Source: Deltaproteobacteria bacterium (GTDB lineage Bacteria > Myxococcota > JACRCW01). From it: a stretch of 20,000 nucleotides of DNA. This document shows, piece by piece, positions 1,084 to 20,000 of the stretch. Both the position numbers and the translations under genes were made by a program. The stretch is taken from the NCBI GenBank assembly GCA_016218805.1, contig JACRCW010000032.1, positions 53,197-73,196 of the forward strand, written 5' to 3'. How positions within the stretch are numbered: position 1 is the first letter of the stretch; each line of letters begins with the position of its first letter. Below the pieces are notes generated by a model that searched no databases, was not told the origin of the DNA, and worked only from the letters and a program-made list of their open reading frames with translations.

Positions 1084-4000
1084 GGCTGGCCTCCAATGCG
1101 CTGGAAGAAATCACGCACATAGTCGTCAGGAACGGCCATCTTTGCCCCGGCCAGGCCCAGCAGAACGGGCCGGAAGCGCGTGGCCTTTGCCGACGACGGC
1201 GCCTGGATGCTGAGCACGTAGGTGCCTGCTTCCAGCGCCAGGTATTGCTGGCAGCCTTCGCCGAGCGGACGGTGCGCGGCGTCAAGGACGCGGCATTCCA
1301 GCGTCTCACCCGGCACCTGCAGCCCCAGGCCGATGCGGCCGGCGGAGGCGGTGCGGAAACGGTAGAGGCGGGTTTCGCCGGGGCCGATGAAGCGCTCCGC
1401 GCCCACGCCGTCAGCCAGCGTCTCCACGGGCTCGGCCGTCCAGGACGCAAGGCCCGCGGTCGGTTCGCCGGCAAACGGCCGGACGACCCAGCGGTAGCTG
1501 CCCGGTCCGAGCAGGCGGTCCACCGCGCAGCCGTCAAGTCCCTCGACGGAGATGGGTTCATTGCCGGACCACAGCGCGCACACGCCGCTGTCGGACCGGA
1601 GGTGCACCACGGCCTCCTTGTCGACGGTGAGGAGGCGCTCCAGGGTGGCGCCAGCCAGGGCCAGCGCGTGCGCGGGCGGCATGGCGGCAGGTGAACGGCC
1701 CGCGGCGGGCGCGGTGCCGAGCCGGGCGCGCTGCAGCGCGCCGGGGGCGTGCACCAAGGCGCGCCAGGGTCCGCGGCCGTGTTCAATCTCCAACACCGCG
1801 CCAACATTCTCGGGCAGCGGCGCGGAACATGAGGGCACGCGGACGCCGTCATCACGGCGCAGCATGCAGCGCGCGTCCCCTTCCACCGTCACCTGGCGTG
1901 CGGCTGAGACGGGGCTGATGTTCGCCCGTGCAATTCCCGCCCGGCGTGACCGTTCTTCCAGCAGCGAATCCAGCGTCACCACCCGCGCCGCGGCGGGCAA
2001 GCGCACCAGCGAGTACTCCGCGCGCGAGCCCGCCTCACCGACGAACACGACGTCACCGCCAGTTCCCTCCAGGCGGCAGTCCATCATGCCCGTGGCCGGC
2101 GCGCACACGTCCAACGCGCGGCCGGTGGAGTCCAGCGCAATGGCCCACGTGTTGGACGGGACCACGGCCCCCAGGCGCCACGCTTCCTTGGGCATGCTGT
2201 ACCGCGCGGCGTCCCCCTTCCACGTCACAAATCCCTGGCCAGCATCCAGCGGCCGCGTGTCCGACGGGAACGGCACGGATGACCACGTCCAGTCCGCCTG
2301 CACGGGACGCGCGCTCCACAAGCGGACCACCGCGTCCGTGGCCACGCCGCTCACCGCGGCGCAGGACTGGTCGCGCAGCTCGCGGGCACCGCCGCCAACG
2401 GCGCAGGCCGGTTCCGCGGGTTCGCCCGGTGGGGTGCGTGCCTGCACCAGGAACAACGACGCCGCGGGAGCCGTCACGCGCTGGATCCACCGGAGCTCCG
2501 CCAGGGTCAACCGGCGCGTGGTCGCTGTCGTCGAGGACAGTGCCTCCTCAGCCAGGTCCAGGCGCCCTTCGGCCTTGCCCGGCACCGCCCACGTGACCTT
2601 GCCCACGTCAAGGGACGCCGCGGGACCGCAGTTGCGCATGAGCCCGCGCGCGTTGTCTTCCAGGCAGTACGCCCGGGCCGCGGTGCGGAAGCGTCCGGCG
2701 CGGGTGACCTCTGCGCGCACCGCAGAGCCCGCAGGCACGGTCCCGCCCGCCCACGCCACCACGTTCTTGGTAGACACCAGCGCTTTCACGGTGGTGCCGC
2801 TGCCCAGCGTCCACAGGCGGAGGCGAACCGGTGCGACGATACGCAGCGGGACCACGCACTCCTTGACGTCAGCGGAGCGCAGCAGCACGCGGCCGCCGGC
2901 GTCCTCTACGGCGCACGAGAACGCGGCGGGGGCGGAGAACACGTATTCCTGCACCACGTCCCCCGCGGGCGGTTGCACCAGGTGGGTCACCACCTGGCCG
3001 GCCAGCTTCAACGCCGTCCCATCCGCCAGCGTGGCGAGCTCCTCCACGCGCGGCGAGCCCACGTGGATGGTGGTGGTGCCGGGCTGCAGCGTCTGGCTCT
3101 CCAGCACCAGGCGGTAGACACCGGCCACCATCGGTTCAGCCAGCGCGCAGTTCCAATCCGCGCCCTGGTCCGCGGATTCCGCAACCAGTCGGCCCGTCGC
3201 ATCGAACAGGCGGCAGCGCACGTCGGTGGAGCCCTCGGAGCGGAACTGCAGCACGCCCGCGGTCTGCATACGCAGCGCGTACTCGCCGGGAACGGTGAGT
3301 TCACGCTTCACGCCGGGCATGAGTTGCTGGCTGGCCACGGTCACGCGGTAGGCAATGTTGACGTCGCCACGGGCGTGCTCCGCCACCAGTTTGTAGCGTC
3401 CCGCCGGCAGGTCCACCCGCTGGCCGCGCGGCTTGGCGGGCATGGGGGGCGGCGGTGCGCGGGGCGCGTAGCGCGGCGCGGGGGCGGGCGCCTCTTCGCT
3501 GCCTTCGCCTTCGCCGCTGTCGCCTTCAGAGTAGGTCTCGCCGCCCTCACTCTCACCGGAGTACTCGGCCATTCCCTCGTCGGGCGGGGCCTCTTCAGCG
3601 GGCGGCTCGTCGGTCGGCTCCGGTGGCATCTCCTGGGGCGCAATCACCTCCACCGGGCGCGGGTTCTTCGCGTCCGCCACGTCGTAGAGCCGGCCCTGCA
3701 TCCCCGCGGTCAACTCAATGTCCACGGGCGCATCCGCCGCCATGTCAAAGTTGAATTCGTCCTTGCCGTCTTTCCCCAGCTGCGCGTTGTACGGCGTGTT
3801 GAGCGCCAGCGTGTGCGCCTTGTTGCCGGCCAGCACCACGGATTCCTTCACGCGCTGGAGCTGCGTGCGCCGCATGCTCTCCACCGTCAGCGGCATCTGC
3901 GTCCACAGGTAGGAACCCTTCTCCAGCCAGCCCGTGCGCTCGCACGCCATGGGCACCGGCATCACCGGCCAACCGTCCGTGTCATCCAGCCGGCACTGGA

Positions 4001-6350
4001 ACGAAGCGTTCTGTGCCGTGGTCCCCAACACGTGGCTGGCACTGCGTTTCACGGTGAGCTTCTGCTGCACCAGGTCGCCGGCCTCGGCGCGGAAGAACGC
4101 CTCGCCGTCGGCGTTGACCGCGGCCATGGTCTTCACGGAGCGCCGCGTGAGCGTGACCCCCGTGCGGCCGCGTGACAGCCCTTCCGTGCGGACGGTGAGC
4201 AGGTAACGGCCGGGGCGCAGGTAACCCTGCACCAGGCAGTTGTGCCCGCGGCCGCCGCGCACGTCGTCGGCCAGGCGCGTGACCAGCGGCGTGCGGATGG
4301 TGCAGCGCGTGGTCAGCAGGCCCAGCGTGGTCACGTGGTAGAGGCCCGCGTCCTTCACGTCGAACAGCAGGGACCGCGCTTCCTCTCGTCCGTAGTCGAA
4401 GAACAGCGTCTTGCCGGGCTCCAGCACCGGCAGCACCGGTGGCGTGGGACTGTAGGACGCCAGCGCCGGTGAGATGGAGCGCGGCGTTGGGCGCACAACG
4501 CTGACGGTGATGGAGCTCTTGCCCGGGTTCTCCAGGATGATGGTGTCACCGGTCTGCGTGGCGGGGAGCACGCACCGCCCGGTGGCGGCATCCGCGGCGC
4601 CACCGCCCTGCATGGCGCACTTGAACGGCACGCCGCCCACGCTGGCCGCCTGGATGACGGTGCCCGGGCCCAGCGCCAGCTTTGCAGTGGCGCCCGGTTC
4701 CAGCTGCACGGGAAGCGCCTGGTCAAACGCCAACGGCAGCCGCCGCACGTACAGGCCGCGCGCCACCGCGTTGCCTGAGCGGTTGAACACCAGCTCATAC
4801 AGCCCGCCGGACGACAGGCTCACACCGGTGATCTGGCAGGTCGTCTTGGCGGCGGTCTCGCCCGTCGCTTCCGTGTTGAACAGGAAGCCCTCCTTGGCAA
4901 TGCGCAGGCGCTCAATCCCCTCCACGCCGCCATAGAGTTTCAATTCGTACCGGCCCGCGGTCAGCAGCTTGGTTGCATCACACGTGACGGCCTCGGGAGC
5001 CGGGTCCACAACGACCTCAGCCTTGTTTCCGGTGAGCTTTACCAGCGAGCACCGGCTCTTGCGCTGTCCGGACGTGGTGACCCGGTAGCGACCCCACTCG
5101 GTGATCTCAAACCAGACCGTCTCGCCCGACGCGTTGTAGTTGAACGCGCGTTCAAACGGCCGGCCGGGGCTCACCTGCAGGAAGTCAGCCGCAATGGGGT
5201 CACCCGGCACGCCGTTGACAACGGGGCGCAGCAGGCACGCCAGCGGGGCACTGTCACGGTCCGCCGGAACGTCGTGCGTGGCGACGAGGTGGTTGCCCGA
5301 GTGGGCCGGGCGGAACATCGCCGACTGGCGCGGCGAATCGTGGAACCCGTCGAGGTTGGACTCGGACCAGCCCCAGGGGACCCAGCGCACCTCCACGTTG
5401 GTGCCCGGTTCACCGCGGATCCACGCCGCGTTGCGGTTGGCGTGCGAACGCACCGCGCACTCGCGCACCAGCGCGGCGGGGGCCACCACGCAGTTGGACT
5501 CCGCCGAGGACAGTCCCACGCCTTCCAACGACAGCGACGACAGGCCCAGCGTGACGGGCAGCCGCGGGTTTCCCTGCACCGCGAGCACGGCCATCGCCGC
5601 ACCGTCAGGAATGCGCCATGCCTGGTAGCCGGATGCGGGAATGGTGGCCGCAACGCCGCGCTCCGGCGGACCGGCGGGCGCGGCCAGTGACACGGTCAGA
5701 TCATCTGCATCCTGCCCGCGCGACCACTCCACCGGGGAGGTGCCGTACACGACGACGAGGTAGTCCCCCGGTTCCATGACGCGATCCAGCCACCACTCCT
5801 GGATGCCCTGGCCCGGGCGCACCACCTGGGTGGCGGAGGATGGCTCCGCCTCGTCCAGCCAGCGGCCCTCGCGCCACACGCGCACCATCCCCGCCGTGCG
5901 CCCCGCCACGCGCAATGAGACGGCCTGCTCCTTGGTTGCCGTGATCCACCAGGAGGCCTGCTTGCCCTCCGGGAGGCGCGTTTCCACGGTGACACCGGGC
6001 ACCAGGCGGGTCACCGGTTGGTTGAGCTCCGGGAACTCCACCGCGGTGACCCGCGCCTGGCCCTTGGCCTTCTGCGTGCCGTGGACGCGCAGCTTGTACG
6101 TGCCCGCGTCCAGCAGCTGGTCCATCCGGCAGTTGCGCTTGCCCACCTGTCCCGCACGCGCAAACGGGCCGCGCACGTGGTCCACCAGCGTGCACCCGCT
6201 TCCCGCCGCGCTGCGTGCATCCAGCCGCACCATGGCAGGGCGCTCCAGCGTGATGATGACGTCGTGGTCACCCGCGGCCGGCACGGCCTCCGGCACCACG
6301 GTGACCGCCTGTGCCAGCAGCGGGAGGAGCAACAGCGCAGCAGCGTTCAT
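1080..6350 (-). CDS. Giant secreted protein (1756 aa) made of repeated PPC-like beta-sandwich modules with Cys pairs; function unknown
   Basis: Longest ORF in the track (1080..6431). Start moved to ATG 6350, which has AAGGAAGG upstream and gives a signal peptide MNAAALLLLPLLAQA. Recurring pattern C-x-L...C...L-x-(A/P)G-x-Y-x-L. Acidic/Pro-rich insertion at 3429-3629. Confidence 0.85.
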   Translation of the reverse strand: MNAAALLLLPLLAQAVTVVPEAVPAAGDHDVIITLERPAMVRLDARSAAGSGCTLVDHVRGPFARAGQVGKRNCRMDQLLDAGTYKLRVHGTQKAKGQARVTAVEFPELNQPVTRLVPGVTVETRLPEGKQASWWITATKEQAVSLRVAGRTAGMVRVWREGRWLDEAEPSSATQVVRPGQGIQEWWLDRVMEPGDYLVVVYGTSPVEWSRGQDADDLTVSLAAPAGPPERGVAATIPASGYQAWRIPDGAAMAVLAVQGNPRLPVTLGLSSLSLEGVGLSSAESNCVVAPAALVRECAVRSHANRNAAWIRGEPGTNVEVRWVPWGWSESNLDGFHDSPRQSAMFRPAHSGNHLVATHDVPADRDSAPLACLLRPVVNGVPGDPIAADFLQVSPGRPFERAFNYNASGETVWFEITEWGRYRVTTSGQRKSRCSLVKLTGNKAEVVVDPAPEAVTCDATKLLTAGRYELKLYGGVEGIERLRIAKEGFLFNTEATGETAAKTTCQITGVSLSSGGLYELVFNRSGNAVARGLYVRRLPLAFDQALPVQLEPGATAKLALGPGTVIQAASVGGVPFKCAMQGGGAADAATGRCVLPATQTGDTIILENPGKSSITVSVVRPTPRSISPALASYSPTPPVLPVLEPGKTLFFDYGREEARSLLFDVKDAGLYHVTTLGLLTTRCTIRTPLVTRLADDVRGGRGHNCLVQGYLRPGRYLLTVRTEGLSRGRTGVTLTRRSVKTMAAVNADGEAFFRAEAGDLVQQKLTVKRSASHVLGTTAQNASFQCRLDDTDGWPVMPVPMACERTGWLEKGSYLWTQMPLTVESMRRTQLQRVKESVVLAGNKAHTLALNTPYNAQLGKDGKDEFNFDMAADAPVDIELTAGMQGRLYDVADAKNPRPVEVIAPQEMPPEPTDEPPAEEAPPDEGMAEYSGESEGGETYSEGDSGEGEGSEEAPAPAPRYAPRAPPPPMPAKPRGQRVDLPAGRYKLVAEHARGDVNIAYRVTVASQQLMPGVKRELTVPGEYALRMQTAGVLQFRSEGSTDVRCRLFDATGRLVAESADQGADWNCALAEPMVAGVYRLVLESQTLQPGTTTIHVGSPRVEELATLADGTALKLAGQVVTHLVQPPAGDVVQEYVFSAPAAFSCAVEDAGGRVLLRSADVKECVVPLRIVAPVRLRLWTLGSGTTVKALVSTKNVVAWAGGTVPAGSAVRAEVTRAGRFRTAARAYCLEDNARGLMRNCGPAASLDVGKVTWAVPGKAEGRLDLAEEALSSTTATTRRLTLAELRWIQRVTAPAASLFLVQARTPPGEPAEPACAVGGGARELRDQSCAAVSGVATDAVVRLWSARPVQADWTWSSVPFPSDTRPLDAGQGFVTWKGDAARYSMPKEAWRLGAVVPSNTWAIALDSTGRALDVCAPATGMMDCRLEGTGGDVVFVGEAGSRAEYSLVRLPAAARVVTLDSLLEERSRRAGIARANISPVSAARQVTVEGDARCMLRRDDGVRVPSCSAPLPENVGAVLEIEHGRGPWRALVHAPGALQRARLGTAPAAGRSPAAMPPAHALALAGATLERLLTVDKEAVVHLRSDSGVCALWSGNEPISVEGLDGCAVDRLLGPGSYRWVVRPFAGEPTAGLASWTAEPVETLADGVGAERFIGPGETRLYRFRTASAGRIGLGLQVPGETLECRVLDAAHRPLGEGCQQYLALEAGTYVLSIQAPSSAKATRFRPVLLGLAGAKMAVPDDYVRDFFQRIGGQP

Positions 6351-6634
6351 GCGAGGCCTTCCTTGCGGGATCACCCGGAGCCCGCGCGGGGAGGAACCAT
6401 ACGGAGGCGGCCCGGGCGCCATGCAACGCACGGGAGTGGGAGCAGGTCTCCTTGACGGGAGGGTGCGCCATGACGCTTCCGGGCCGGCCTCGACGGGTTG
6501 CTGTGCAACGGCGGCGCCAACCTGCGTCTGCCCCGGGGCGCCTCCACGTGCCGTGCTCTGCGGATCGCAGCAAACGCGCTGCGGTCCGTTGCGCGGGCTG
6601 GCGACGCGCCGCCGCCCAAGCTACACGGGCCCAC

Positions 6635-7348
6635 ATGTCCAGCTTCCGGGGATTCGTCCTCGCCCTGTTGTGCGGCGCTGTCGCGTACGGTTGTGGCATC
6701 CGCCCCAGGTCCTTCAACGGCGTGACGGTGAGCGGTTCCGTGAAGGACGCGCTGTACCGGACGCCCGTCCCCAACACGGAAGTGTGCATCATTGAGCCGG
6801 ACCTGGGCTGCACACACACCAACCCGCTGGGCGAATTCGACTTCATTGACGTGCCGCCGCGTTCACGCCTGCTCGTGCGCTTCCTGCGTGGCGGCTACTA
6901 CCCCAACGTGGCGCACTACTCCGTGGGTGACGGGGATGAGTTCCTCACTTACCTGCTCACCAGCGAGCAGCTCAGTGACCTGGCCGCGGAGTTGGCGCAC
7001 GTCCGCCGGGACGACGCCATGTCCATCATCGTCTTCAGCGCGCGCACCGGCCGCGGGCCGGACGCGGAGAACGTGGAGGATGTCGCCGTGTCGCTGGAGC
7101 CGGCGCAGGGTGACGGACCTTTCTACGCGGTGCAGAACGGGTTTGATGACAGCCGCACCGCCACCACGTCCGTGGGCGGCGGGGTGATCTTCAACGTTCC
7201 GCCGGGCACGGCCACGGTGCGCTACACGCACGCGGACCGCCGGTGCGCCCCGTATTACGGCTGGGAGGGCCCGGACGCGGGCACGCTGACCGTGCGCCTG
7301 CTGGAGGGCTACTCCACGTACATCAGCCAGGTGTGCACGCCGCCGTGA
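6635..7348 (+). CDS. Putative lipoprotein (237 aa) with carboxypeptidase-regulatory-like beta-sandwich domains
   Basis: ATG 6635 gives MSSFRGFVLALLCGAVAYG-C (lipobox-like). VSGSVKDA...PVPNTEVCI...TNPLGEFDFIDVP and IFNVPPGTATVRY resemble CarboxypepD_reg-type domains. The upstream extension in the ORF track is not protein-like. Confidence 0.7.
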   Translation: MSSFRGFVLALLCGAVAYGCGIRPRSFNGVTVSGSVKDALYRTPVPNTEVCIIEPDLGCTHTNPLGEFDFIDVPPRSRLLVRFLRGGYYPNVAHYSVGDGDEFLTYLLTSEQLSDLAAELAHVRRDDAMSIIVFSARTGRGPDAENVEDVAVSLEPAQGDGPFYAVQNGFDDSRTATTSVGGGVIFNVPPGTATVRYTHADRRCAPYYGWEGPDAGTLTVRLLEGYSTYISQVCTPP

Positions 7349-7351
7349 CGG

Positions 7352-9001
7352 TCACGGGTTGCACGTGAAGCTCACCGGCAGCGCCAGGTCCTGCGCGCAG
7401 GACCACGCAGCTTCAAACGCCTCGGCGCCGTAGTCCGGGTTCAGGCCGTTCCCGTCGCTGGGAACGCTGCGGTCCACGCCGTCCGCGCGCAGCGTGCCGG
7501 ACAGGGCGTTCTCCTCCGCGCCTATGGCACCGTTCACCGCCTGCAGCGTGCCGGCGGCCACGGTCACTGCCAGCGCTCCCGCGGCGGAATGGACCCGCAG
7601 CTCACCGTCCGTCCACTGCACGTTGTCAAACCGCGCAATGGGCGAGCTGATGGCGCACTGCCCGCTGCTCTCCGCACGCGCGGTGCGCGGGTGCACCACG
7701 CCCTGCAGGCGGCCGGAGGTCACGGTGAGGCCGGTGTCGTCGGCACTGGTGCCCAGGTGGAAGTCCGTGAAGGTGGCGTCCAGCGTGATGGTGACGGACT
7801 GGTCATCCGCCGGAATGGCGGGGGCCTGCGGGTTACCGGTGAGGGTCCCGTGGATGACCTTGGTGCCGGACACCTCCAGCCCGCCGGAGAACAACGTGCG
7901 GACGCGCTGGCAGTCCGTCGCCACGGTGGAACCTTCGCGGTAGCTCTTCACGCAGCGGGACAGCGTCTGCGTTGCGGTGCCCGCGCCTCCCGCGGTGCCG
8001 GTCACCACCGCGGCCTGTTGCACGGCGTCGGACGCAAAGCCGCAGTCGTGGTCAGCGTTCATGGCGGCCGCCAGGGACCCAAGCAGCTTGATGGTCAGTC
8101 GCGCCGCACCGTCCACCACGCGGGGCGCCAGGTCCGCGCACTGCGTGCTCTCCGGCTGCGCGAGATTCTCCGTGCACGCGTAGCGCTCCTTGAAGCGTGC
8201 CGCGTCGTAGTCCGGATCCAGGACCGCGTCCTCGCCGCGCGTAGGAAGTGCAAACCGCCGGGAGGGTGCGGGCGGTTCAAACGGCGCGCGGATGGCGAGC
8301 GTGATGGAGCCCGTCAGGGCGTTCTCCCCGCCGGGGCCGCGGCCGTTCTGCGCATCCAGGCTGGAGCCCGTCACTTCCAGCAGGAAGTCCAAACGCTCCG
8401 TGTGCAGCCGGAGGTGGCTGGCGCCGTACTGCACCGCGCTGAACTGCGCGTTGGGGGTCGCTATCGCGCAGGCGCCGCTGTCCGCCGCGGCGGCAAGCCC
8501 GGGCCGCACCACGGCGGTGAGTGTGCCGTCCGTGAACTCCAGCGTCTCCGGCCCCGTGCTGTCCGCCACGCGGAAACCCGCCGCGGCGGTCACCTCCAAT
8601 TCCACGCTCACCGCATCCGGCGCATCCGGGATGGCCGGCGTCTCCGCGCCGCCGGACAGCAGGCCATGCACGCGCCGCACGGCGTTGACGACGACGGTTC
8701 CGCGCGCGCGGGTCTCCTCGCCCAGACACGTGGTGCGGATGACCTTCTCCTCCGGCAGCTCAATCCGGCAATCAAGCACGCGCAGCGTGGCGGTTCCCGT
8801 CCGGCCGAGCGCACCGTCGTACTCCACCGCGGCCAGCACCGCGGGGGACTTGAACCCGCACGCGGTGTCGTCGTTCACCAGCGTGGCAATGGCCCCCACG
8901 TTGCGGACGGTGAGGCGCGCAGCGCCCATGGCCACCTGGTCACCCGCAAACAACCCGCAGCCCAGCGGTGCAGCAAGGACGACGGCAACCGCCGCCCTCA
9001 C
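7352..9001 (-). CDS. Putative lipoprotein (549 aa) made of two homologous ~260-aa six-Cys domains; function unknown
   Basis: GTG 9001 overlaps the M28 stop (GTGA) and gives MRAAVAVVLAAPLG-C (lipobox). Internal duplication with both halves starting GAARLT (8926 and 8110). Confidence 0.8.
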   Translation of the reverse strand: MRAAVAVVLAAPLGCGLFAGDQVAMGAARLTVRNVGAIATLVNDDTACGFKSPAVLAAVEYDGALGRTGTATLRVLDCRIELPEEKVIRTTCLGEETRARGTVVVNAVRRVHGLLSGGAETPAIPDAPDAVSVELEVTAAAGFRVADSTGPETLEFTDGTLTAVVRPGLAAAADSGACAIATPNAQFSAVQYGASHLRLHTERLDFLLEVTGSSLDAQNGRGPGGENALTGSITLAIRAPFEPPAPSRRFALPTRGEDAVLDPDYDAARFKERYACTENLAQPESTQCADLAPRVVDGAARLTIKLLGSLAAAMNADHDCGFASDAVQQAAVVTGTAGGAGTATQTLSRCVKSYREGSTVATDCQRVRTLFSGGLEVSGTKVIHGTLTGNPQAPAIPADDQSVTITLDATFTDFHLGTSADDTGLTVTSGRLQGVVHPRTARAESSGQCAISSPIARFDNVQWTDGELRVHSAAGALAVTVAAGTLQAVNGAIGAEENALSGTLRADGVDRSVPSDGNGLNPDYGAEAFEAAWSCAQDLALPVSFTCNP

Positions 9002-10305
9002 AACAGCCGGCACGTCTGCTCCGTGTAGTCCGGCGACGCCAGGCACATGATGCGTTGGGTGGCGCGGCGCAGGGTGGAGCGCTGGGTGCTGGTGAGCGCG
9101 GTACCGGTATCCGCCACGCTCTTCACCGCCGTCACGTCCGCCAGGTCCTGTTGCAGCAGGTTGCGCGTGTCGGTGGTGAGGGACAGCGCGTCTACGATGC
9201 CGCCAGTGGCCAGTGCATCGCTCATCACGCCGTGGATTGTCTCCGCGTCCGTCCGGTCGTCGCGCCCCTGCGCATCAAACTGCGGGGTGGTGGTGGCGTC
9301 TCCCAGAGCGCGGACCAGCGCGAGCAGCAGTTGCGCTTCCAAGGCCATCCGGTCGTAGGACAGCGTGGAGGCCTCGTCCGACGGCGTGTGGTACATCTTG
9401 TTCTGCCCGTTGCTGAGGAACACCACGGGCACGCCGCGGTTGCGGAACGCGTCGTAGTCACTCCACGGTTGCATGCCGTTGCGGGTCTGTTCCACCAGGT
9501 GCAGGCCGCCGCGGCGCGCGCCGAGTCCGGCGGGAATATCCAGGGCGGCGGCGGCGGCGTTCACCTCGCTGCTGGACTCCGCACCCAGCACAAAATGCCC
9601 CGCGTAACCCGGCCACAGGTCCCCGCCCACCAGGTCCATGGCAATGGCCACGTCGGTGTCAGCCAGCGGAACCAGCGGGTGGCCGGCGTAGTACTCGCTG
9701 CCCATGTCGTTGGAGAGGAAGGTCGGGGGCTCCTCGGCGTCCCAGGCGGCAATGAGCACGCTGCGCTTGGGGGCCGCGCGGGACACTTCGCAGGCCACCG
9801 CCATCAGGATGGCCACCGCTGCCGCGTTGTCATTGGCGCCGTTGCAGACCGCGCCACCGCAGTCACCCAGGTGGTCATAGTGCGCGCTGACAATGATGTG
9901 CCGTGATGCAAGCGCGCTGTCCGTTCCCGCAATGCGTCCCAGCAGGTTGATGCCGGGTGAGGAGCCAATGGCCTGCTCAAAGCCCGTGGTGCCGGCCTCC
10001 TGCAGCCGGCACTGCCCCATGAGGTCCTTGATGTACGTACGCGCGGCCTGGGAGCCCGCGGTTCCCTCGTCACGGCCGTCCATGCTGTCTGAGGCCAGGT
10101 CCGTGGTGAGCCGCTGCAGCTCCGCTTCCGTCATGAAGGATGGGACGGGCGGCCCCGCGTCCGGCGTGCCGCTGCTGCCGCCGGAGGAGGACGACGACGA
10201 CGAGGACGACGACCCGCCGCCTCCGGACGACGACGAGGACGAGTTGGAGCCGCCGCTGCACGCGATGCACCCGGCCAATCCCAGCACTGCGACGGAACGT
10301 TTCAT
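8998..10305 (-). CDS. M28 family zinc metallopeptidase lipoprotein (435 aa)
   Basis: ATG 10305 with GGGAGAG upstream; MKRSVAVLGLAGCIAC lipoprotein signal then a Ser/Gly linker. M28 motifs: SAHYDH, GANDNAAAVA, WDAEEP, MDLVG, WSDY, YHTPSD. Confidence 0.92.
   Translation of the reverse strand: MKRSVAVLGLAGCIACSGGSNSSSSSSGGGGSSSSSSSSSSGGSSGTPDAGPPVPSFMTEAELQRLTTDLASDSMDGRDEGTAGSQAARTYIKDLMGQCRLQEAGTTGFEQAIGSSPGINLLGRIAGTDSALASRHIIVSAHYDHLGDCGGAVCNGANDNAAAVAILMAVACEVSRAAPKRSVLIAAWDAEEPPTFLSNDMGSEYYAGHPLVPLADTDVAIAMDLVGGDLWPGYAGHFVLGAESSSEVNAAAAALDIPAGLGARRGGLHLVEQTRNGMQPWSDYDAFRNRGVPVVFLSNGQNKMYHTPSDEASTLSYDRMALEAQLLLALVRALGDATTTPQFDAQGRDDRTDAETIHGVMSDALATGGIVDALSLTTDTRNLLQQDLADVTAVKSVADTGTALTSTQRSTLRRATQRIMCLASPDYTEQTCRLL
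10183..10240. repeat. (GAC/GAG)n trinucleotide-rich tract encoding the poly-Ser/Gly linker of the M28 lipoprotein
   Basis: gaggaggacgacgacgacgaggacgacgac...gacgacgacgaggac on +, read as TCG/TCC Ser runs on -. Confidence 0.75.
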
Positions 10306-10381
10306 CAGTGGCTCTCCCGGCAAGTGGGCGCTTTCTGGCAAGGGCCCACCGCCACTGCAAGGGCAGCGGCGTGCTTCCCTG

Positions 10382-10396
10382 TGGCGCGGTGCTGGC
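10382..10396 (+). promoter_or_regulatory. Candidate sigma-54 (-24/-12) promoter for the FHA-GAF-HD-GYP gene
   Basis: TGGCGCGGTGCTGGC versus consensus TGGCACGN4TTGC: GG-N10-GC spacing is exact and 9 of 11 defined positions match. Chance matches are common in GC-rich DNA and the leader would be very short. Confidence 0.25.
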
Positions 10397-10412
10397 CTAC
10401 ACCAACACAAAG

Positions 10413-11999
10413 ATGGGACCAGCACGGCTGTTCTACATGGATGAAGCGGGCTCCCGCCGCGGGCTCCCGCTCAAGGGCACCGTGGTCACGGTGGGCCGCG
10501 CGCGTGACAACATGGTGACCTTCCCGCGGCAGGAAGGCGTCAGCCGCTACCACGCGGAACTGGTGGGCCACGACGAGGGCTGGGTCATTGTGGACCGCGG
10601 CAGCAGCGCAGGGACGTTTGTCAACGGCGTGCAGGTGCAGCAGCACCCGCTGGAGAGCGGGGACGTGATCCGCCTGGGCCCGCCACCCGCGCCGGAGCTG
10701 ACCTACCTGGAGGTGGAGGAGGCCACCGCGCTGCGTGAGACCCCGGAGATGCGCGACGACTCCATGACGATCATGCGTCCGGCGCACAGCACGTTCCTGG
10801 ACCCGGAGAAGCTGCAGGCCGCGTCCGCGGGGAAGGGTGCGGCGCAGCTGGTGCAGCGGATGCGCGCGCTGTTTGAGGTCACCACCGCGCTGTTGCAGGT
10901 CCATGACGTGGACGCGCTGTGCCGCGTGGTGCTGGAGGCCGTGTTCCGAATGTTGGCGGCGGACCGCGGCGCCATCCTGTTGCGCGCGGGGAACGTGGAT
11001 GACCTGGTGCAGAAGGCCGCGCACGTGCGGCCGGGCCAGCCTGGAGACGGGTTTGCGCCGTCGCGCACCATCACGCACCGCGTGCTGGATGAGAACGTGG
11101 GCGTGCTGTCCATGGACGCCTCCACCGACGAGCGCTTTGAGCAGGGGGCGTCCCTGGTGATGCAGTCCGTGCGCAGCGTGGTGTCGGCGCCCATCTCCAG
11201 CGCGGGCCACGTGTGGGGCGTGCTGTACCTGGACACCACGCTGGCGCGGCGGTCGTTCGCGGAGGATGACCTGGAATTGCTGGTGGCCGTGGGGCGGCAG
11301 GCCGCCATGGCCATGCAGAATCTCCACCTGGTGGAGGAGCAGCAGAAGACATTTGAATCCATGATGCGCGCGCTGGCGCACAGCATTGACGCGCGGGACG
11401 GCATCACGGCGGGCCACTCCAGCCGCGTGGCCAAGTACAGCCAGGCCATCGGGCGGCACCTTGGGCTGTCGTCGGGGGAATGCCGCATCATCTGGTACGC
11501 GGGCCTGCTGCATGACTACGGCAAGATCGGCACGCGGGAGGCCGTGCTCACCAAGCCCGGCCCGCTGACCAGCGAAGAATACGAGCACATGAAGGAGCAC
11601 CCCAAGCACACCTTCCGCATCCTGTCGTCCATCAACTTCTCGCCGGAGATGCGGGACATCCCGCGCATTGCCGCCAGCCACCATGAGCGGCCCGACGGCA
11701 CCGGCTATCCGTTTGGCTGGAAGGGTGACGAGATCCCGATGGGCGGGCGCATCATTGCCGTGGCGGACTTCTTTGACGCGCTGACGGTGCGGCGGCACTA
11801 CCGCGAACCCGCGCCGCTGGAGGAGGTGCAGCGCATGATTGTGCAGGGGCGGGGCACGCAGTTTGACCACGACGTGGTGGAGGCGTTTGGGCGCTGGTTT
11901 GATCGCGAGTACGTGCCGTTTGCGCGGCGGATGGCGGAGCGGCGCGCCATTGTCCAGTCCGCCGACGAGTTGTCGTCACACAAGCAGCGCACCAAGTAG
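10413..11999 (+). CDS. FHA-GAF-HD-GYP cyclic dinucleotide phosphodiesterase (~528 aa)
   Basis: FHA: VGRARDN, VSRYHA, GTFVNG, LESGDVIRLG. GAF: SVRSVVSAPI...GVLYLD...FAEDDLELL. HD-GYP: GHSSRVA, LLHDYGKIG, KPGPLT, HHERPDGTGYP, IIAVADFFDAL, RHYR. Start is ATG 10413 (alternative ATG 10437). Confidence 0.92.
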   Translation: MGPARLFYMDEAGSRRGLPLKGTVVTVGRARDNMVTFPRQEGVSRYHAELVGHDEGWVIVDRGSSAGTFVNGVQVQQHPLESGDVIRLGPPPAPELTYLEVEEATALRETPEMRDDSMTIMRPAHSTFLDPEKLQAASAGKGAAQLVQRMRALFEVTTALLQVHDVDALCRVVLEAVFRMLAADRGAILLRAGNVDDLVQKAAHVRPGQPGDGFAPSRTITHRVLDENVGVLSMDASTDERFEQGASLVMQSVRSVVSAPISSAGHVWGVLYLDTTLARRSFAEDDLELLVAVGRQAAMAMQNLHLVEEQQKTFESMMRALAHSIDARDGITAGHSSRVAKYSQAIGRHLGLSSGECRIIWYAGLLHDYGKIGTREAVLTKPGPLTSEEYEHMKEHPKHTFRILSSINFSPEMRDIPRIAASHHERPDGTGYPFGWKGDEIPMGGRIIAVADFFDALTVRRHYREPAPLEEVQRMIVQGRGTQFDHDVVEAFGRWFDREYVPFARRMAERRAIVQSADELSSHKQRTK

Positions 12000-12039
12000 G
12001 CGGCTTGCAGCCCCGGGTGCCGGTGCGTAGGAACGCTCC

Positions 12040-13068
12040 ATGACCTCCCTCCACGTCCTCACCCAGGCTCCCGACGAGGTGGCGTGCGGCACCGGTGTGA
12101 CGGACGGCCGGGGCCGCGCCGTGCGCTACCTGCGCATGAGTGTGACGGACCGCTGTGACATGGCGTGCGTGTACTGCATGCCTGTGGGGTATCAGGGCAG
12201 CCCGCGCGCGGAGCTGCTGAGCTTTGAGGAGATGGTGCGCGTGGCGGTGGCGTTCCGCGCGGTGGGTGTGCGCACGGTGCGCCTCACCGGCGGTGAGCCG
12301 TTGGTGCGCCGGGACCTGGTGAGCCTGGTGGCGGCCATGAGCCGCGCTGCGCCCGGCATGGACCTGGCGCTCACCACCAACGCGGGGCTCCTGGAGCGGT
12401 TTGCGGGGCCGCTGCGCGAGGCGGGCCTCACCCGCATCAACGTGAGCGTGGACAGCGTCCGTGATGACGACTTCCGCCGCATCACGCGGGGCGGGGAGTG
12501 GCGCGCGGTGCGCGCGGGGATCCTGGCGGCGCGCACTGCCGGGTTCACGGAGCTCAAGACCAACACGGTGGTGCTGCGCCACGAAAACCTGTCCCAGGTG
12601 CGCGAGATTGCCCAGTGGGCGCTGGCCCACGCGCTGGTGCCGCGCTTCATTGAACTGATGCCGCTGGGCGAGGGCGCCGCGCTCATGGCGAACCACGTGC
12701 CGTGGGCCGAGGTCCGTGATGCGCTGGGGGACCTGCTGGGCGAGGCGCCGCCGGACCACCCGGCCGACCGGGGCCCGGCGTTCTACCTGCCGGCGCGCGG
12801 CGGCGGCCGCGTGGGGTTCATCACCGCCGTGTCCAACCAGTTCTGTGACGTGTGTGACCGCATCCGGATGACCGCCAAGGGCGAGCTGCGCGCGTGCCTG
12901 GCCAGCCCCGACGGTCTGTCCTTGCGTGACGTGATGCGCGCGGGCGCCACCGACGACGAACTGGTGGCCGTCCTGCGCGACGTGCTCGCCGGCAAGACCG
13001 CACACCGGTTCACGGAGTCCGGGTTTGGCCAGGCGCCCGGCGTGGTGATGACCGGCATCGGCGGCTGA
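12040..13068 (+). CDS. moaA: GTP 3',8-cyclase MoaA (radical SAM, molybdenum cofactor biosynthesis)
   Basis: YLRMSVTDRCDMACVYCMP (CxxxCxxC), VRLTGGEPLVR, LTTNA, RINVSVDS, RFIELMP, C-terminal cluster FCDVCDRIR...LRACL, terminal MTGIGG. Confidence 0.96.
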   Translation: MTSLHVLTQAPDEVACGTGVTDGRGRAVRYLRMSVTDRCDMACVYCMPVGYQGSPRAELLSFEEMVRVAVAFRAVGVRTVRLTGGEPLVRRDLVSLVAAMSRAAPGMDLALTTNAGLLERFAGPLREAGLTRINVSVDSVRDDDFRRITRGGEWRAVRAGILAARTAGFTELKTNTVVLRHENLSQVREIAQWALAHALVPRFIELMPLGEGAALMANHVPWAEVRDALGDLLGEAPPDHPADRGPAFYLPARGGGRVGFITAVSNQFCDVCDRIRMTAKGELRACLASPDGLSLRDVMRAGATDDELVAVLRDVLAGKTAHRFTESGFGQAPGVVMTGIGG

Positions 13069-13220
13069 CGGCGGTGTGCGCGCGGTCACGCCGGTGGCCA
13101 AGATAGCGGACGGGCCTCCGCTGCGGCACAGCGTGGCACGTTTCTCGGCGAGGAACGCGGTGAGCGCTGGTAGCGTGCCCCGCGCGCGCCGGCGTTCCAA
13201 CGGCGCCCCGGGGAAACAAC

Positions 13221-16200
13221 ATGCGAATGTCACGGACTCTGTTGGGGGTGGTTTGCACGTTGGCGTTGGGTGCGGGCCTGGGTTGCAGCGGCAGCACGGG
13301 CGATGACGACGACACCACGTCGTCCGGCAGCAGCGGCAACGCGAGCAGCTCGTCGTCGGGGATGACGTCGTCGTCGTCGTCGTCGGGCGGCAGTTCGCAG
13401 GGTGGGGGGAGTTCCCAGGGCGGCGGCTCGTCGGGGACGCTGGCTTCGTCCACGGGAGGCAGCTCGTCGTCCGGCGGGAGCACGTCGTCATCGGGCGGGG
13501 CCGCATCTGCTTCCGGCGGAACCACCTCCTCATCTGGCGGAACCACTTCTTCCTCCGGCGGAACCACGGCGGCGGAGAACTGCGCGGTGGCCGGTGACGA
13601 GGACCAGGATAGCGCGCCGGACTGCGCGGACCTGGACTGCGCCGCGGATGCCGCGTGCCAGCAGTGTGCCTCCACCACGCCCATCCGCTGCTCGGACGGA
13701 CGCTGCGTGGCGGCGGCCACGGACTGTGTCAGCACCTGCCCGGCGCGCTGCCCGGATGGTTCATGCGTGGCGGACGCCGCGCTGTGCGGCGGCAACGGCT
13801 GCCCGGTGGACCGGCCGGTGGCGTGCGACGGCACGTGCGTGCGTGACACCGCCGCGTGCGGAGGATGCGCCGGCACCACGTCCGTGCGCTGCCCCGACGG
13901 ATCCTGTGCCACCGCGGACAGCGCGTGCGGCGCCAACTGCCCGGTGCGGTGCGCGGACGGCACGTGCGCGGACACGGCTGACCGTTGCGGCACCAACGGA
14001 TGCCCCACGGACCGCCCGGTGATCTGCAACGGCCTGTGCGTGGCGGCGGCCACCGACTGCGGCACCTGCCCGCCGGAGCGCCCCGTGTTCTGCGGCGGCA
14101 CGTGCGTGGGGTCGCCGGACCAGTGCCCGTCGGTCTGCCCCTCCAGCGCGCCCACGCGTTGCCCGGATGGCTCGTGCCAGGCCACGCAGACGGAGTGCGG
14201 CGCCCTGTGCCGTTACACCTGCCAGGATGGTTCATGCGTGTCTGACCCGACGCTGTGCACCACCAACGGCTGCCCGGCGGACCTGCCCGTGCTGTGCAAC
14301 GGCCGCTGCGTGATTGCCCAGACCCAGTGCGACGCCTGCCCCTCCACCGCCCCGGTCCGCTGCCCTGACGGCAGTTGCACCGTTGACGTCTTGCGGTGCG
14401 CGGAGACGTGCACGTTCCAGTGTGCGGATGGCCGCTGCGTGTTTGATCCGTCCCAGTGCGGGGGTCTGGCCTGTCCGCCTGATGCGCCCGCGCGTTGCCC
14501 TGACGGGACCTGTGTGCGTTCCCAATCCGAATGCGCCACCTGCACCTTCCGCTGCACCGACGGCCGCTGCGTCTCCGACCCGGTGTTGTGCGCGGCCCAG
14601 GGCTGTCCGCCCGAGCTGCCGGCGTACTGCAACGGCACCTGCGTGCGTGACGCCGCCTCATGCCAGGTGTGCGACGCGACCAACTCCATCCGCTGTCCCG
14701 ACGGCACCTGCGTGACGGATGCGACGCAGTGCGGCTCCACCTGCCCGTTCCGTTGCACCGACGGCAGCTGCGTGAGCGACCCGCAACGCTGCGGCACCAA
14801 CGGCTGCCCGGCGGACGCGCCGTTCCTGTGCAACGGATTGTGCGTGCGTGACGTGTCCGCGTGCACCGGCTGTCCGGCCACATCGCCCGTGCGCTGCCCG
14901 GACGGATCCTGCGCCGCGTCCGCGGACCGCTGCGGTGCCAACTGCCCCGCGCGCTGCCCGGACGGGACGTGCGTGTCAGACCCCGCGTTGTGCGGAACCA
15001 ACGGCTGCCCCCCGGATGCGCCGCTGTTGTGCAATGGCCTGTGCGTGCGTGACACCACGCAGTGCGGCGCCTGTCCCACCTCCACGCCGGTGGCCTGCCC
15101 GGACGGCACCTGCGCGGTGTCCCCGGACCGTTGCGCGGACCAGTGCCCCCTGCGCTGCGCGGACGGCACGTGCGTGACGGCGTCCAACGCGTGCGGCGTC
15201 AACGGCTGACCCGCGGACCGCCCCGTGGCGTGCAACGGCGTGTGCGTGGCCACGCAGGCGGACTGCCAGGGCTGCCCGGTGGATGCGCCGTACCTGTGCA
15301 ATGGCCGCTGCGTGGCGGACCGCACGCTGTGCACCGCGTGCCCCTCGGACGCGCCCGTGCCCTGCCCGGACGGCAGCTGCGCACTGTCGGCGGAGCGCTG
15401 CGTGGTCAGCTGCCCGTACCGGTGCGCGGATGGGTCTTGCGTGACGGCGTCCACGGCGTGTTCCACCAACGGGTGCCCCGCCACTGCGCCCATCCTGTGC
15501 AATGGCCGCTGCGTGGCGGACCAGCGCCTGTGCAATGCCTGCCCGGCCACGGCTCCCGTGCTGTGCCCGGACAGCAGCTGCGCCGCCGCGGCGTCAGACT
15601 GCGGCGCCACCTGCCCGGTGCGCTGCGCGGATGGCAGCTGCGTGACGTCGGTGGACGCGTGCCTCACCAACGGCTGCCCGGCTGACCGCCCGGTGCTGTG
15701 CAACGGCCTGTGCGTGGCTGACCAGGCGCTGTGCAACGGTTGCCCGTCCACGCTCCCCGTCCGCTGCCCGGACGGGCGCTGCGCGGCGGTGGAGACGGAG
15801 TGCGCCAGCGCCTGCCCGGTGCGCTGCTCGGACGGGACGTGCGTGACCAGCGCGTCAGCGTGCGGCCAGAACGGCTGCCCGCTGGACCGCCCGCTGCTGT
15901 GTGACGGCGCCTGCGTGCCCGCCACCATGACCTGCGGCACCTGCTCCAGCACGGCCCCGGCCCGCTGTCCGGACGGCACCTGCGCCGCGTCACCGGACCG
16001 GTGCACCGCGTACTGCCCGTACGTCTGTCCGGGGAGCACGTTGTGCGTGCAGGACGCCACCCAGTGCGGCCAGCAGTGCCCGGCGGACGCGCCCATCCGT
16101 TGTCCCACCGGCCAATGCGTGACCAGCGACCTCATCTGCACGGGCGGCTGCAACACGCGCTGCGCGGACGGCCGCTGCGTGACGGACCCCACGCAATGCT

Positions 16201-16562
16201 CCAGCACGGCGTGCCCGTCCACGGCCCCGTTCCTGTGCACGGACGGCAGCTGCGTGCTGGACGTGTCACGGTGCGGCAACAACGGCTGCCCGGCCACGGA
16301 GCCCGTGCTGTGCCCGGACGGGCGGTGCGCGTCGTCGTCGCTGTTGTGCGCCAACAGCTGCCCGGCCCGGTGCTCAGACGGCCGCTGCGTGACGGACCCG
16401 GCCCAGTGCCAGGTGACCACCTGCCCCACGGACGCTCCCTTCCGGTGCACGGATGGCAGCTGCGTGCGGGACCAGGCCACCTGCCAGGCTCCGTGTCCCG
16501 CGGCCACACCGGTCCGCTGCCCCAACGGCTCGTGCGCGCAGTCCACCACGTCCTGCGGCTAG
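13221..16562 (+). CDS. Giant cysteine-rich lipoprotein (1113 codons, 43 four-Cys modules) interrupted by one in-frame TGA at 15207-15209 (recoded gene, fresh nonsense allele or sequencing error)
   Basis: Track ORFs 13221..15209 and 15225..16562 are in the same frame (offset 2004 = 668 codons). The junction reads ...GVNG*PADRPVACNGVCV..., matching sibling repeats NGCPADRPVLCNGLCV. Lipobox LGAGLG-C, ~95-aa Ser/Gly/Thr linker, ENCAVAGDEDQDSAPDCADLDC motif. Final stop TAG. Confidence 0.85.
13515..13567 (+). repeat. 21-bp tandem repeat (~2.5 copies) encoding GGTTSSS in the linker
   Basis: GGCGGAACCAC starts at 13515, 13536 and 13557. Confidence 0.85.
13665..16556 (+). repeat. Degenerate coding repeat array: 43 modules of 19-25 aa with a dominant three-module period of ~67 aa (~200 bp)
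   Basis: Types: A = CPxxxPxRCPDGxC-x6-C; B = CxxRCxDGxC-x6-C; C = NGCPxDxPxxCNGxC-x6-C. Mostly ordered ABC. Counted by hand from the translations. Confidence 0.85.
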
Positions 16563-16595
16563 GTCGCTGACCGCCGCTTCCCTACACCGCCCGCC

Positions 16596-16654
16596 GTTCC
16601 ACTGGTTCCGGTGGCTCCACGTGGAGCCCACCGGAATCCGGCGGAGCTTTTTTT
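16596..16654 (+). terminator. Rho-independent terminator after the Cys-rich gene
   Basis: Long imperfect stem 16596-16647 with the perfect palindrome GGCTCCACGTGGAGCC at 16613-16628, flanked by TTCCGGT/ACCGGAA, followed directly by T7 (16648-16654). Confidence 0.85.
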
Positions 16655-16718
16655 GACCCCTCAGCATGGCCCCCGTACCCTCGCCGCGGACGCAATTGTT
16701 CTCCCCCATGGAGCGGCC

Positions 16719-17969
16719 GTGACAAATCAGCGCCTGACTTGCCTGTCGGTGACCGCGCTCCTGGCGGCGTGCCACGCCCCGGAGCCGCCCGCGGCGGTGC
16801 CCGTGACCCCGGTGGCGGCCGCCGTGGCGCTGCCGCCCGCGCCCGCCCTGGTCCCGCCCCCCGCGCCCGGCGTGGTGACGGTGCGCGACACCACGGTGCG
16901 GCTGGGGCAGGGCACGCTGGGCGGGGTGCTGGCCTCCGCGGGCGTGTCCGCGGAGGACGCGGCGCGGGCGCTGGCCGCGCTGCCCCAGACGTTTGAACCG
17001 CGCCGGATGCGTGCCGCGGACCTGGTGGGCATCCGCAGTGAGGACGGGGCGCTGGCGGAACTGGAGTTGCGGGGGTTCCGTGAGGACGGCGCGCCCCAAC
17101 GGGTCAGCGTGACGCGCGGGCCAGACGGGACCTGGCATTCCGCCACCGCCGCGGCGGAGGTCCGCGTCGTCCAGGAAGTGGTGCGCGGGACCATCCGGGA
17201 CACGCTGTATGACTCGCTCATCGCGCTGCGCGAGGGGCCGGCGCTGATCAACCGGTTCGTGGACGTGTTTGACTCCCAGGTGGACTTCTACCGGGAGGTG
17301 CAGAACGGTGACACGTTCCGTCTCGTCGTGGAGAAGCGCTACGCGGGTGACCGGCTGGTGGGCTACGGGCGCGTTCTGGCGGCGGAGTACCGGCAGGCCG
17401 GGCGCACGCTGCGCGGCTTCTGGTGGGCGGGTCCGGAAGGGAAGGGCGGCCATTATGACGAACGCGGCCGTGCCCTGCTGACCGCGTTTCTCAAGACGCC
17501 CATGGAGTTCACCCGGATCACGTCCAGCTTTGGCATGCGCTTCCACCCGGTCCTGCACGAACGGCGCGCGCACAACGGCGTGGACTACGGCGCGCCCACC
17601 GGCACGCCGGTGTGGTCCGTGGGTGACGGCCGCGTGCTGTCCGCGCGGGCGGAGGGCGCCTGCGGCAACGCGGTGCTGGTGCAACACCCCAACGGTCTCA
17701 CCACGGGGTACTGCCACCTGTCCCGCTTTGCCGCCGGCATGCGCGCGGGGGCGCGCGTGGGGCAGCGGCAGGTCATTGGCTACGTGGGCACCACCGGGCG
17801 CTCCACGGCGCCGCACCTGCACTTCCTGATGAAGCGCAACGGGGATTACGTGAACCCACAGAAGATTGAGGCGCCCCGCCGCGCGGGCCTGTCCGGCGCC
17901 GAGCTTGCGAAGTTCCATGCGATCCTGCCAGACCTCGTCTCACGCCTGGAGAACGGCTCCGGCGCCTGA
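16719..17969 (+). CDS. M23 family peptidoglycan DD-metalloendopeptidase (MepM-like), probable lipoprotein (416 aa)
   Basis: GTG 16719 with GGAG upstream; LLAA-C lipobox. Middle domain VDFYREVQNGDTFRLVVEK. M23 motifs RITSSFGMRFHP, HNGVDY (HxxxD), YCHLS, GTTGRSTAPHLHF (HxH). Confidence 0.92.
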   Translation: MTNQRLTCLSVTALLAACHAPEPPAAVPVTPVAAAVALPPAPALVPPPAPGVVTVRDTTVRLGQGTLGGVLASAGVSAEDAARALAALPQTFEPRRMRAADLVGIRSEDGALAELELRGFREDGAPQRVSVTRGPDGTWHSATAAAEVRVVQEVVRGTIRDTLYDSLIALREGPALINRFVDVFDSQVDFYREVQNGDTFRLVVEKRYAGDRLVGYGRVLAAEYRQAGRTLRGFWWAGPEGKGGHYDERGRALLTAFLKTPMEFTRITSSFGMRFHPVLHERRAHNGVDYGAPTGTPVWSVGDGRVLSARAEGACGNAVLVQHPNGLTTGYCHLSRFAAGMRAGARVGQRQVIGYVGTTGRSTAPHLHFLMKRNGDYVNPQKIEAPRRAGLSGAELAKFHAILPDLVSRLENGSGA

Positions 17970-17970
17970 G

Positions 17971-19692
17971 GTGCGTGTGCGTTGCGTCCCGCGGTTCCTG
18001 CCCGTGGTGCTGGTCCTGGCGCTTGCCGCGCCCGGAGGAACGCGCGCCGGTGACGACGCACCGCCGCCGCCGCCGCGGGTGGTGCTGGGGGTGGAGCTGG
18101 AGCCGCTGCTGGCCCGGATGTCCGTGGAGCAGAAGGTGGGCCAGCTGCTGCTGCTGGGCTTTGGCGGGACGGAGCTGGATGACCGCGCGCGCGTGTTGTT
18201 CCATGACAAGCGGCCCGGCGGCGTGGCGCTGTTCTCACGCAACATTGGCGGGCGCGCGCAGGTGCGCGCGCTGACGGCGGCGGTCCGCCGGGAGATGGGC
18301 GCGGAGATCCCGCCGTTCATTGGCGTGGACCAGGAGGGCGGCAACGTCATCCGGCTCAAGGAGCGCACCACGCTGCTGCCCTCCGCCATGGCGCTGGGCG
18401 CCACCCGCAGCCCCCCGCTGGCCGAAGCCGCGGGCCGCGCCGTGGGGGCGGACTTGCGCGCGCTGGGGTTCAACATGAACTTTGCGCCGGTGCTGGACGT
18501 GAACAGCAACCCGGCCAACCCGGTCATTGGCGTGCGTTCGTTTGGTGAGCGCCCGGAGCTGGTGGCGGAGCTGGGCAGCGCGTTCATTGCCGGGCTGCGT
18601 GCGTCCGGCGTGGCGGGCGTGGCCAAGCACTTCCCCGGGCACGGGGACACCCGGGAGGACAGCCACTTCCGCCTCCCGTCCGTCCCGCACGACGTGGCGC
18701 GGCTGGAGGCGGTGGAGCTGCTGCCGTTTGAACGCGCGTCCCGGGAGGGGCTGTCCGCCATCATGACGGCGCACCTGGCGCTGCCCGCCATCACGGGTGA
18801 CCCGGACCTCCCCGCGTCGCTGTCACGCGAAGTGCTGACGGGCATTCTGCGCCGCAAGATGGGCTTCCAGGGCATCATCATGACGGACGGCCTGGAGATG
18901 GAGGCGGTGGCGGGGCGGTTTGGCGCGGGCAAGGCGGCGGTGATGGCGGTGAAGGCCGGCGCGGACATGGTCATGGTGCTGTGGTTCCCTGAGAAGAAGA
19001 CGGAGGTCCACCGCGCGCTGCTGGCCGCCGCCCGCTCCGGCGAGATCCCGCGCCAGCGCCTGGACGACGCGGTCCTGCGCGTGCTGGGCGAAAAGGCGCG
19101 CCTGGGACTGCTGGGTGCGGTGCCGCCGCCGCCGCCCGCGCCCGGCGCGTCCACCCTGGGCGTGGATGACCAGGTGGCCGCCGGCGCCGTGACCCTGCTG
19201 CGCAATGAAGGCGACGTGCTCCCGCTGGAGGCACACCAGCGGGTGCTGGTGGTGAGCCCGGATGGCACGTTTGCCGCGGCCCTCAAGCAGCGCCTGCCCC
19301 GCACGCGCTCCATCCTGATCCCGTCCACCATGTCGTCAGAGAAACGGCGCGCCGCGCGGTTCCGCGCCCTCAAGCAGGGGCGCGAGGTGGACGTGGCGGT
19401 GGTGGCGGTGGTCAATGACGTGCAGCTGCAGGTGGCGCGCGCCCTGGCGCAGGACCGGCCGGGCCGCCCCGTGGTGGTGGTCAGCCTGCTGTCTCCCTAC
19501 CTGCTGTCCCAGGTCCCGGACGTGGATGCCTACCTGTGCACGTACAGCTACCTGCGGCCGGCGCAGGTGGCCGCCGCGCGCGTCATCTCCGGGCACGCGC
19601 AGGCGCGTGGGAAGCTGCCGGTGAGCATCCCCCGGCACGCGGCGTTTGGTGACGGCCTGCAGCCGCCGCGCTCGGCGTCCATTGGTCCCTGA
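17971..19692 (+). CDS. nagZ: GH3 beta-N-acetylglucosaminidase (NagZ type) with signal peptide and C-terminal GH3 domain (~573 aa)
   Basis: DQEGG, NFAPVLDV, RSFG, NagZ signature KHFPGHGDTREDSH, MTAH, nucleophile region MTDGLEM; C-terminal VTLLRN...SPY...GKLPVSIP. GTG start one base after the M23 stop (alternative GTG 17977). Confidence 0.92.
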   Translation: MRVRCVPRFLPVVLVLALAAPGGTRAGDDAPPPPPRVVLGVELEPLLARMSVEQKVGQLLLLGFGGTELDDRARVLFHDKRPGGVALFSRNIGGRAQVRALTAAVRREMGAEIPPFIGVDQEGGNVIRLKERTTLLPSAMALGATRSPPLAEAAGRAVGADLRALGFNMNFAPVLDVNSNPANPVIGVRSFGERPELVAELGSAFIAGLRASGVAGVAKHFPGHGDTREDSHFRLPSVPHDVARLEAVELLPFERASREGLSAIMTAHLALPAITGDPDLPASLSREVLTGILRRKMGFQGIIMTDGLEMEAVAGRFGAGKAAVMAVKAGADMVMVLWFPEKKTEVHRALLAAARSGEIPRQRLDDAVLRVLGEKARLGLLGAVPPPPPAPGASTLGVDDQVAAGAVTLLRNEGDVLPLEAHQRVLVVSPDGTFAAALKQRLPRTRSILIPSTMSSEKRRAARFRALKQGREVDVAVVAVVNDVQLQVARALAQDRPGRPVVVVSLLSPYLLSQVPDVDAYLCTYSYLRPAQVAAARVISGHAQARGKLPVSIPRHAAFGDGLQPPRSASIGP

Positions 19693-19861
19693 CCCAGGTT
19701 CCGCCGTCGCTGCGCAGTCCAAACCGCGTAGCGTTTTCGCGATCTTGGCGCGTGGCCCCCCGTAGCCCCCTGTGATAGTCCGCCCGCGCCCGGGCGAGGC
19801 GCCCGGCCCCATTTTTCGCGCCGGAACGGGCTTGCTGCCCCCCGGCAGCACGAGGCGAGTC

Positions 19862-20000
19862 ATGTTGAAGCGTCCCAAGATCGCGATCGTTGGTGCAGGT
19901 GGCAACGTGGGTGCGGCCGTGGCGCAGTGGGCGGCCATCAAGGACCTGGGTGACCTGGCCCTCATCGACCTCAAGGGCGCCGTGGCACAGGGCAAGGGCC
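19862..20000 (+). CDS. mdh: Malate dehydrogenase (LDH-like), 5' part; runs off the window
   Basis: ATG 19862 with GAGG upstream: [46 protein letters not shown]. Rossmann Gly loop plus KxLGD and QGK motifs of LDH-like MDHs. The substrate loop separating MDH from LDH is outside the window. Confidence 0.8.

Follow-up and report, generated by a model that had tools for sequence, protein, structure and literature searches.

An in-frame TGA in the gene for a 43-module Cys-rich repeat protein is probably a one-base assembly error, in a bacterium that probably uses selenocysteine

Bacterial selenoproteins, for example SelD and members of the Prx/Trx-like families, are recognized by the pairing of Cys with TGA, as set out in the sections of PMC13188914 drawn on here. 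The legend to Fig. 2 of that source describes the consensus bSECIS as a hairpin with a loop of 3–9 nt containing a G and a stem of 4–16 bp, located 16–37 nt from the UGA and with a folding energy of –7.5 kcal/mol or lower. The field wants the TGA to be present in more than one sequence, and singletons are treated as possible sequencing errors (cited portions of PMC13188914 and PMC2398784). The singleton candidates in PMC2398784 likewise consist of one sequence with an in-frame TGA that is unsupported by others, and they are left uncalled in the part of that paper cited here because sequencing errors may account for them.

The locus analyzed here lies in a window of 20,000 nt, by which we mean the whole stretch of DNA that was studied. 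It resembles the bacterial selenoproteins in having an in-frame TGA at a conserved Cys, and in belonging to a genome with tRNA-Sec and a UGA-containing selD. Unlike them, it has a TGA that is absent from the contigs of the sequencing runs covering it, lacks a consensus bSECIS, gave no second TGA-bearing homologue in the searches below, and falls on a Cys of a repeat, outside any redox motif. It also differs from the singletons in the cited part of PMC2398784 in that the contrary base is directly visible here, in three runs. The features of the locus are as follows:

13221–16562, forward strand: gene encoding a Cys-rich repeat protein of 1113 aa, a predicted lipoprotein, split by TGA in the assembled record
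13221–13286, forward strand: predicted signal peptide of a lipoprotein, running to Cys22, with a basic N-terminus and a hydrophobic stretch
13287–13574, forward strand: linker, acidic and then Ser/Gly/Thr-rich, likely disordered as judged by its sequence
13572–13658, forward strand: weak acidic double-disulfide-like repeat, residues 118–146 (NF033662, scoring 18.7 bits where the cut-off is 41, from a search with residues 1–160; the whole protein gave no match)
13665–16559, forward strand: 43 tandem four-Cys modules of 21–25 aa, with Cys spacings of 7-3-6, 7-4-6 and 3-4-6, and one of 3-5-6
15207–15209, forward strand: codon 663, which is TGA in the record and TGT (Cys) in each of the runs X1, X2 and X3
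16596–16654, forward strand: terminator-like hairpin (16596–16647) followed by seven T, from folding (–39 kcal/mol for 16591–16660)

In the assembled record the frame comprises 1114 codons, and its stops are solely the TGA at codon 663 and the TAG at codon 1114. From residue 149 onward, translation gives the 43 modules. Their Cys positions, four per module, are encoded by 171 Cys codons and one TGA, which takes the first Cys position of module 24; the modules are mostly grouped as 67-aa triplets, and the remaining 10 of the 11 NG-x-P junctions carry TGC. The 450 codons on the 3' side of the TGA retain all of their Cys and show no decay, with a GC3 of 0.93 compared with 0.89 upstream. Of the 2161 long coding frames in the genome, 1921 terminate with TGA, and moaA ends with GGC-TGA. 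A reading made earlier from the sequence only, referred to below as the sequence-only reading, had described a frame intact on both sides of the TGA, the count and Cys content of the modules, about 450 undamaged downstream codons, TGA as a normal stop, and a TAG end with a terminator, and all of these are borne out. The terminator-like hairpin was seen by folding, while a consensus terminator scanner returned 0 sites and so missed the hairpin.

The predicted signal peptide ending at Cys22 matches the lipobox pattern, which we take to mark a lipoprotein. The product of the gene is likely a single unbroken protein of 1113 aa with Cys at position 663. As predicted from its sequence, the protein would be exported and lipid-anchored, with the Ser/Gly linker leading into 43 small modules in a row, each of them probably held closed by a pair of disulfides; such an array would make a long and flexible filament at the surface, which may serve in adhesion or ligand binding.

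The TGA does align with a conserved Cys, yet this alignment is uninformative here. The gene offers 10,017 possible single-base changes, 315 of which make a stop, and since 178 of these 315 routes begin at a Cys codon, a Cys/TGA match is expected from any nonsense change. Nearly all of the Cys residues occupy invariant positions in the modules, and more than half of random nonsense changes would therefore fall on one of them. One wrong base in a Cys-rich gene can thus mimic a selenoprotein, even in a genome that truly uses Sec.

We then compared the record with public sequencing data at base 15209. Four public DNA runs contain the stretch; all come from one study, and the assembly may derive from X1. 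Depth was found in 30, 30, 30 and 28 of the 30 bins across the window, and X4 is without coverage at 15209. In the assembled contigs of the three covering runs, from which rare variants are dropped, the base is T and not A in every case, so that codon 663 reads TGT and encodes Cys. The depth of the alternative letter equals the total depth in X1 (21.4/21.4), X2 (4.78/4.78) and X3 (4.19/4.19); the depths in X2 and X3 are below 5, a range prone to errors, and both runs agree with X1. TGT is also the codon for 16 of the 177 other Cys residues of the gene. The X1 contig spans 2767 nt (14786–17552) and differs from the record solely at base 15209, and the change from A to T at this base is the only difference listed across window positions 1–20000, where coverage is incomplete at some bases. 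Since no other difference is listed over 20 kb, the runs carry the same strain-level population, and since the record matches the runs at all other listed positions, it is otherwise accurate. Sixteen further difference rows (14600–15800, at 90% likeness) were rejected as X1 pieces from other copies of the repeat, and were gone at 97%. No public RNA runs containing the stretch are listed.

The in-frame TGA at a Cys position is therefore true of the assembled record only. Because codon 663 is TGT in all three covering runs, we propose that the TGA is probably a one-base assembly (consensus) error in an intact gene. Consensus errors are not common at depths of 20–30, and we found no donor of the A elsewhere in the genome (no paralogue is present, and words centered on the A occur once). 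A real and recent nonsense allele, in which TGT changed to TGA in the assembled subpopulation or sample, would also account for the record; it involves no recoding and would cut the protein short after 662 aa and 23 modules. Contigs cannot reveal rare alleles, so a minority A allele could be hidden, the record agrees with the runs at every other listed position, and an N-anchored surface protein could tolerate the loss of its distal repeats. Against this, A is found in 0 of 3 covering runs, and with no other variant listed in 20 kb the population is apparently near-clonal here; we regard such an allele as rather unlikely. The sequence-only reading had named a one-base change, either an error or a recent mutation, as its fallback, and the run contigs support it: the guess of a change from TGC to TGA was right as to a one-base change from a Cys codon and wrong as to the codon itself, which is TGT in the runs.

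The principal proposal of that reading was that the TGA is decoded as selenocysteine or read through, with 662-aa and 1113-aa forms of the protein. In this explanation some lineage truly carries the TGA, and Sec insertion, or readthrough as Cys or Trp, yields the full-length surface protein. The TGT in 3 of 3 covering runs, again in contigs from one study, argues against it. Reads with C at base 15209, giving a Cys codon, were what the authors of that reading had named as refuting their own proposal; the runs give a Cys codon there, with T in place of C, and the proposal fails on this check. The site also belongs to a set of 172 equivalent Cys positions that are likely structural, and is not a redox motif. 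A second TGA-bearing sequence of the kind that the field looks for, according to the cited parts of PMC13188914 and PMC2398784, did not emerge from the homologue searches below.

We evaluated the sequence after the TGA for a SECIS element using our own script, which enumerates hairpins under the published constraints with contiguous stems only, and which was written after ensemble folding had failed. No consensus bSECIS follows the TGA of codon 663: the best hairpin has an energy of –3.9 kcal/mol under strict settings and –5.6 kcal/mol under loose settings, compared with the threshold of –7.5 kcal/mol. The same enumeration recovered two positive controls in this genome, selD (–9.7 kcal/mol) and a TGA-containing gene on C26 (–13.9 kcal/mol). 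As background, 9 of the 171 ordinary Cys sites of the gene pass –7.5 kcal/mol by chance, and 57 of the 171 reach –3 kcal/mol or better. Weak G-loop hairpins are present at the allowed spacing from the TGA, and some true SECIS elements deviate from the consensus, as stated in the cited portion of PMC13188914, which leaves a point in favor of recoding. A separate attempt by free folding with ensemble sampling was discarded; it scored the positive control selD at 0.000–0.002.

Other evidence on the side of recoding comes from the Sec machinery. A tRNA-Sec is encoded at C19:92476-92569 (72.7 bits, cut-off 47), and selD (C28:1894-2829, reverse strand) has one in-frame TGA near its N-terminus, at the usual site, together with the consensus SECIS hairpin described above. 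The three nearest relatives searched all have SelA and SelB. The genes selA and selB were not found in the present assembly, which counts as weak evidence against recoding given that the assembly is 92% complete; because all three relatives have both genes and the assembly is 92% complete, selA and selB likely lie in its missing part. The search for the four components suggested by the sequence-only reading thus gave tRNA-Sec and a UGA-containing selD, and not selA and selB. Based on the two that were found, the organism probably uses Sec, in keeping with what that reading had allowed for.

The feature is not real as recoding. We consider it highly improbable that a lineage with a genuine TGA decodes it as selenocysteine or reads through it, and the two protein forms that had been envisaged are unsupported, with TGT in the runs and no consensus SECIS. 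A combined scenario is barely credible: a Sec-competent bacterium would carry TGT and TGA as true alleles of this codon, and a hairpin outside the consensus would let Sec insertion or readthrough save the TGA form. If true, it would show the very start of a replacement of Cys by Sec, within a disulfide module that has a structural role in a surface protein.

Two further observations concern TGA codons elsewhere in the genome. A 48-aa frame at C26:52551-52697 (forward strand) has an internal TGA and the consensus hairpin of –13.9 kcal/mol. A genome-wide scan for interrupted frames listed 8 TGA sites after filtering 25; it missed both codon 663 and selD, the 8 sites resemble gene boundaries, and we set the scan aside as uninformative.

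The four-Cys modules have no match in Pfam, NCBIfam or the PDB, a PDB sequence search giving 1 match with an E-value of 0.18 that is attributable to chance. The acidic double-disulfide repeat NF033662 accounts for one weak match at residues 118–146, below its cut-off, and does not cover the 43 modules. Repeat proteins of a similar kind are frequent elsewhere, with 173 matches among 7998 scored candidates (120 of them listed) and, in a further search, 51 matches among 8000 scored candidates, and the four-Cys repeat matches 305 clusters at 50% identity; the Cys-rich composition inflates the similarity scores of such repeat proteins. Identities are about 25–35%. The named matches are mostly from protists, with a few labeled bacterium or Mycoplasma. 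The highest identity, 41%, is to P0132, a bacterial-looking predicted lipoprotein. At least five copies of the core spacing C-x(1,2)-[DNST]G-x-C-x6-C occur in 166 of 169 fetched proteins. None of the 169 contains U, X or a stop, which says nothing about Sec because predicted proteins end at TGA.

Tandem four-Cys modules with the same core are shared by the present protein, P0132 and the protist Cys-repeat proteins, including those of Blastocystis (P0108), Anaeramoeba (P0112), Trimastix (P0103) and Pseudomicrothorax (P0005). Several of the protist proteins examined extend beyond the repeats into a C-terminal region that contains a hydrophobic segment, and a filamin repeat occurs in some, whereas the present protein has a predicted N-terminal lipid anchor and ends with its last module. 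The four-Cys repeat was detected in 0 of 400 genomes from its own phylum, and together with these sequence matches this suggests a repeat family that is patchily distributed and not yet curated. A repeat found in 305 clusters and yet without a match in Pfam, NCBIfam or the PDB could be curated as a family.

Homologues in related genomes had been expected to reveal whether the TGA recurs. At the DNA level, none was detected in 40 related genomes or in the 400 from the same phylum, for each of which up to 15 candidates were scored, no relatives of the locus were present among 60 candidate stretches in genome contigs, and there were 0 pattern matches to it in JGI metagenome contigs. An exact look-up of 6 protein forms in a collection of 15 billion found all 6 absent. 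The ESM Atlas contains the 662-aa form, probably from the same record, and gave no match at or above 0.9. Narrow literature searches on this repeat type, and on assembly errors in MAGs in connection with selenoproteins, found no paper, from which absence from print does not follow.

The genes neighboring the repeat protein, which encode MoaA, an M23 peptidase, an FHA-GAF-HD protein and a GH3 hydrolase, show no link to selenium. The FHA-GAF-HD domain protein (10140–11999, forward strand) is likely an HD-GYP-type phosphodiesterase and is encoded directly upstream of moaA. On the reverse strand, an M28 peptidase (8998–10425) has a lipoprotein-like N-terminus and a Ser/Gly linker resembling that of the Cys-rich protein, and the DNA of this linker (10166–10252) acts as a repeat in the run alignment. 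Also on the reverse strand are a 564-aa frame (7352–9046) that appears to be internally duplicated and matches nothing in Pfam, and a 1783-aa predicted secreted protein (1080–6431), likewise without a Pfam match, which is followed by a further large frame that extends past the start of the window.
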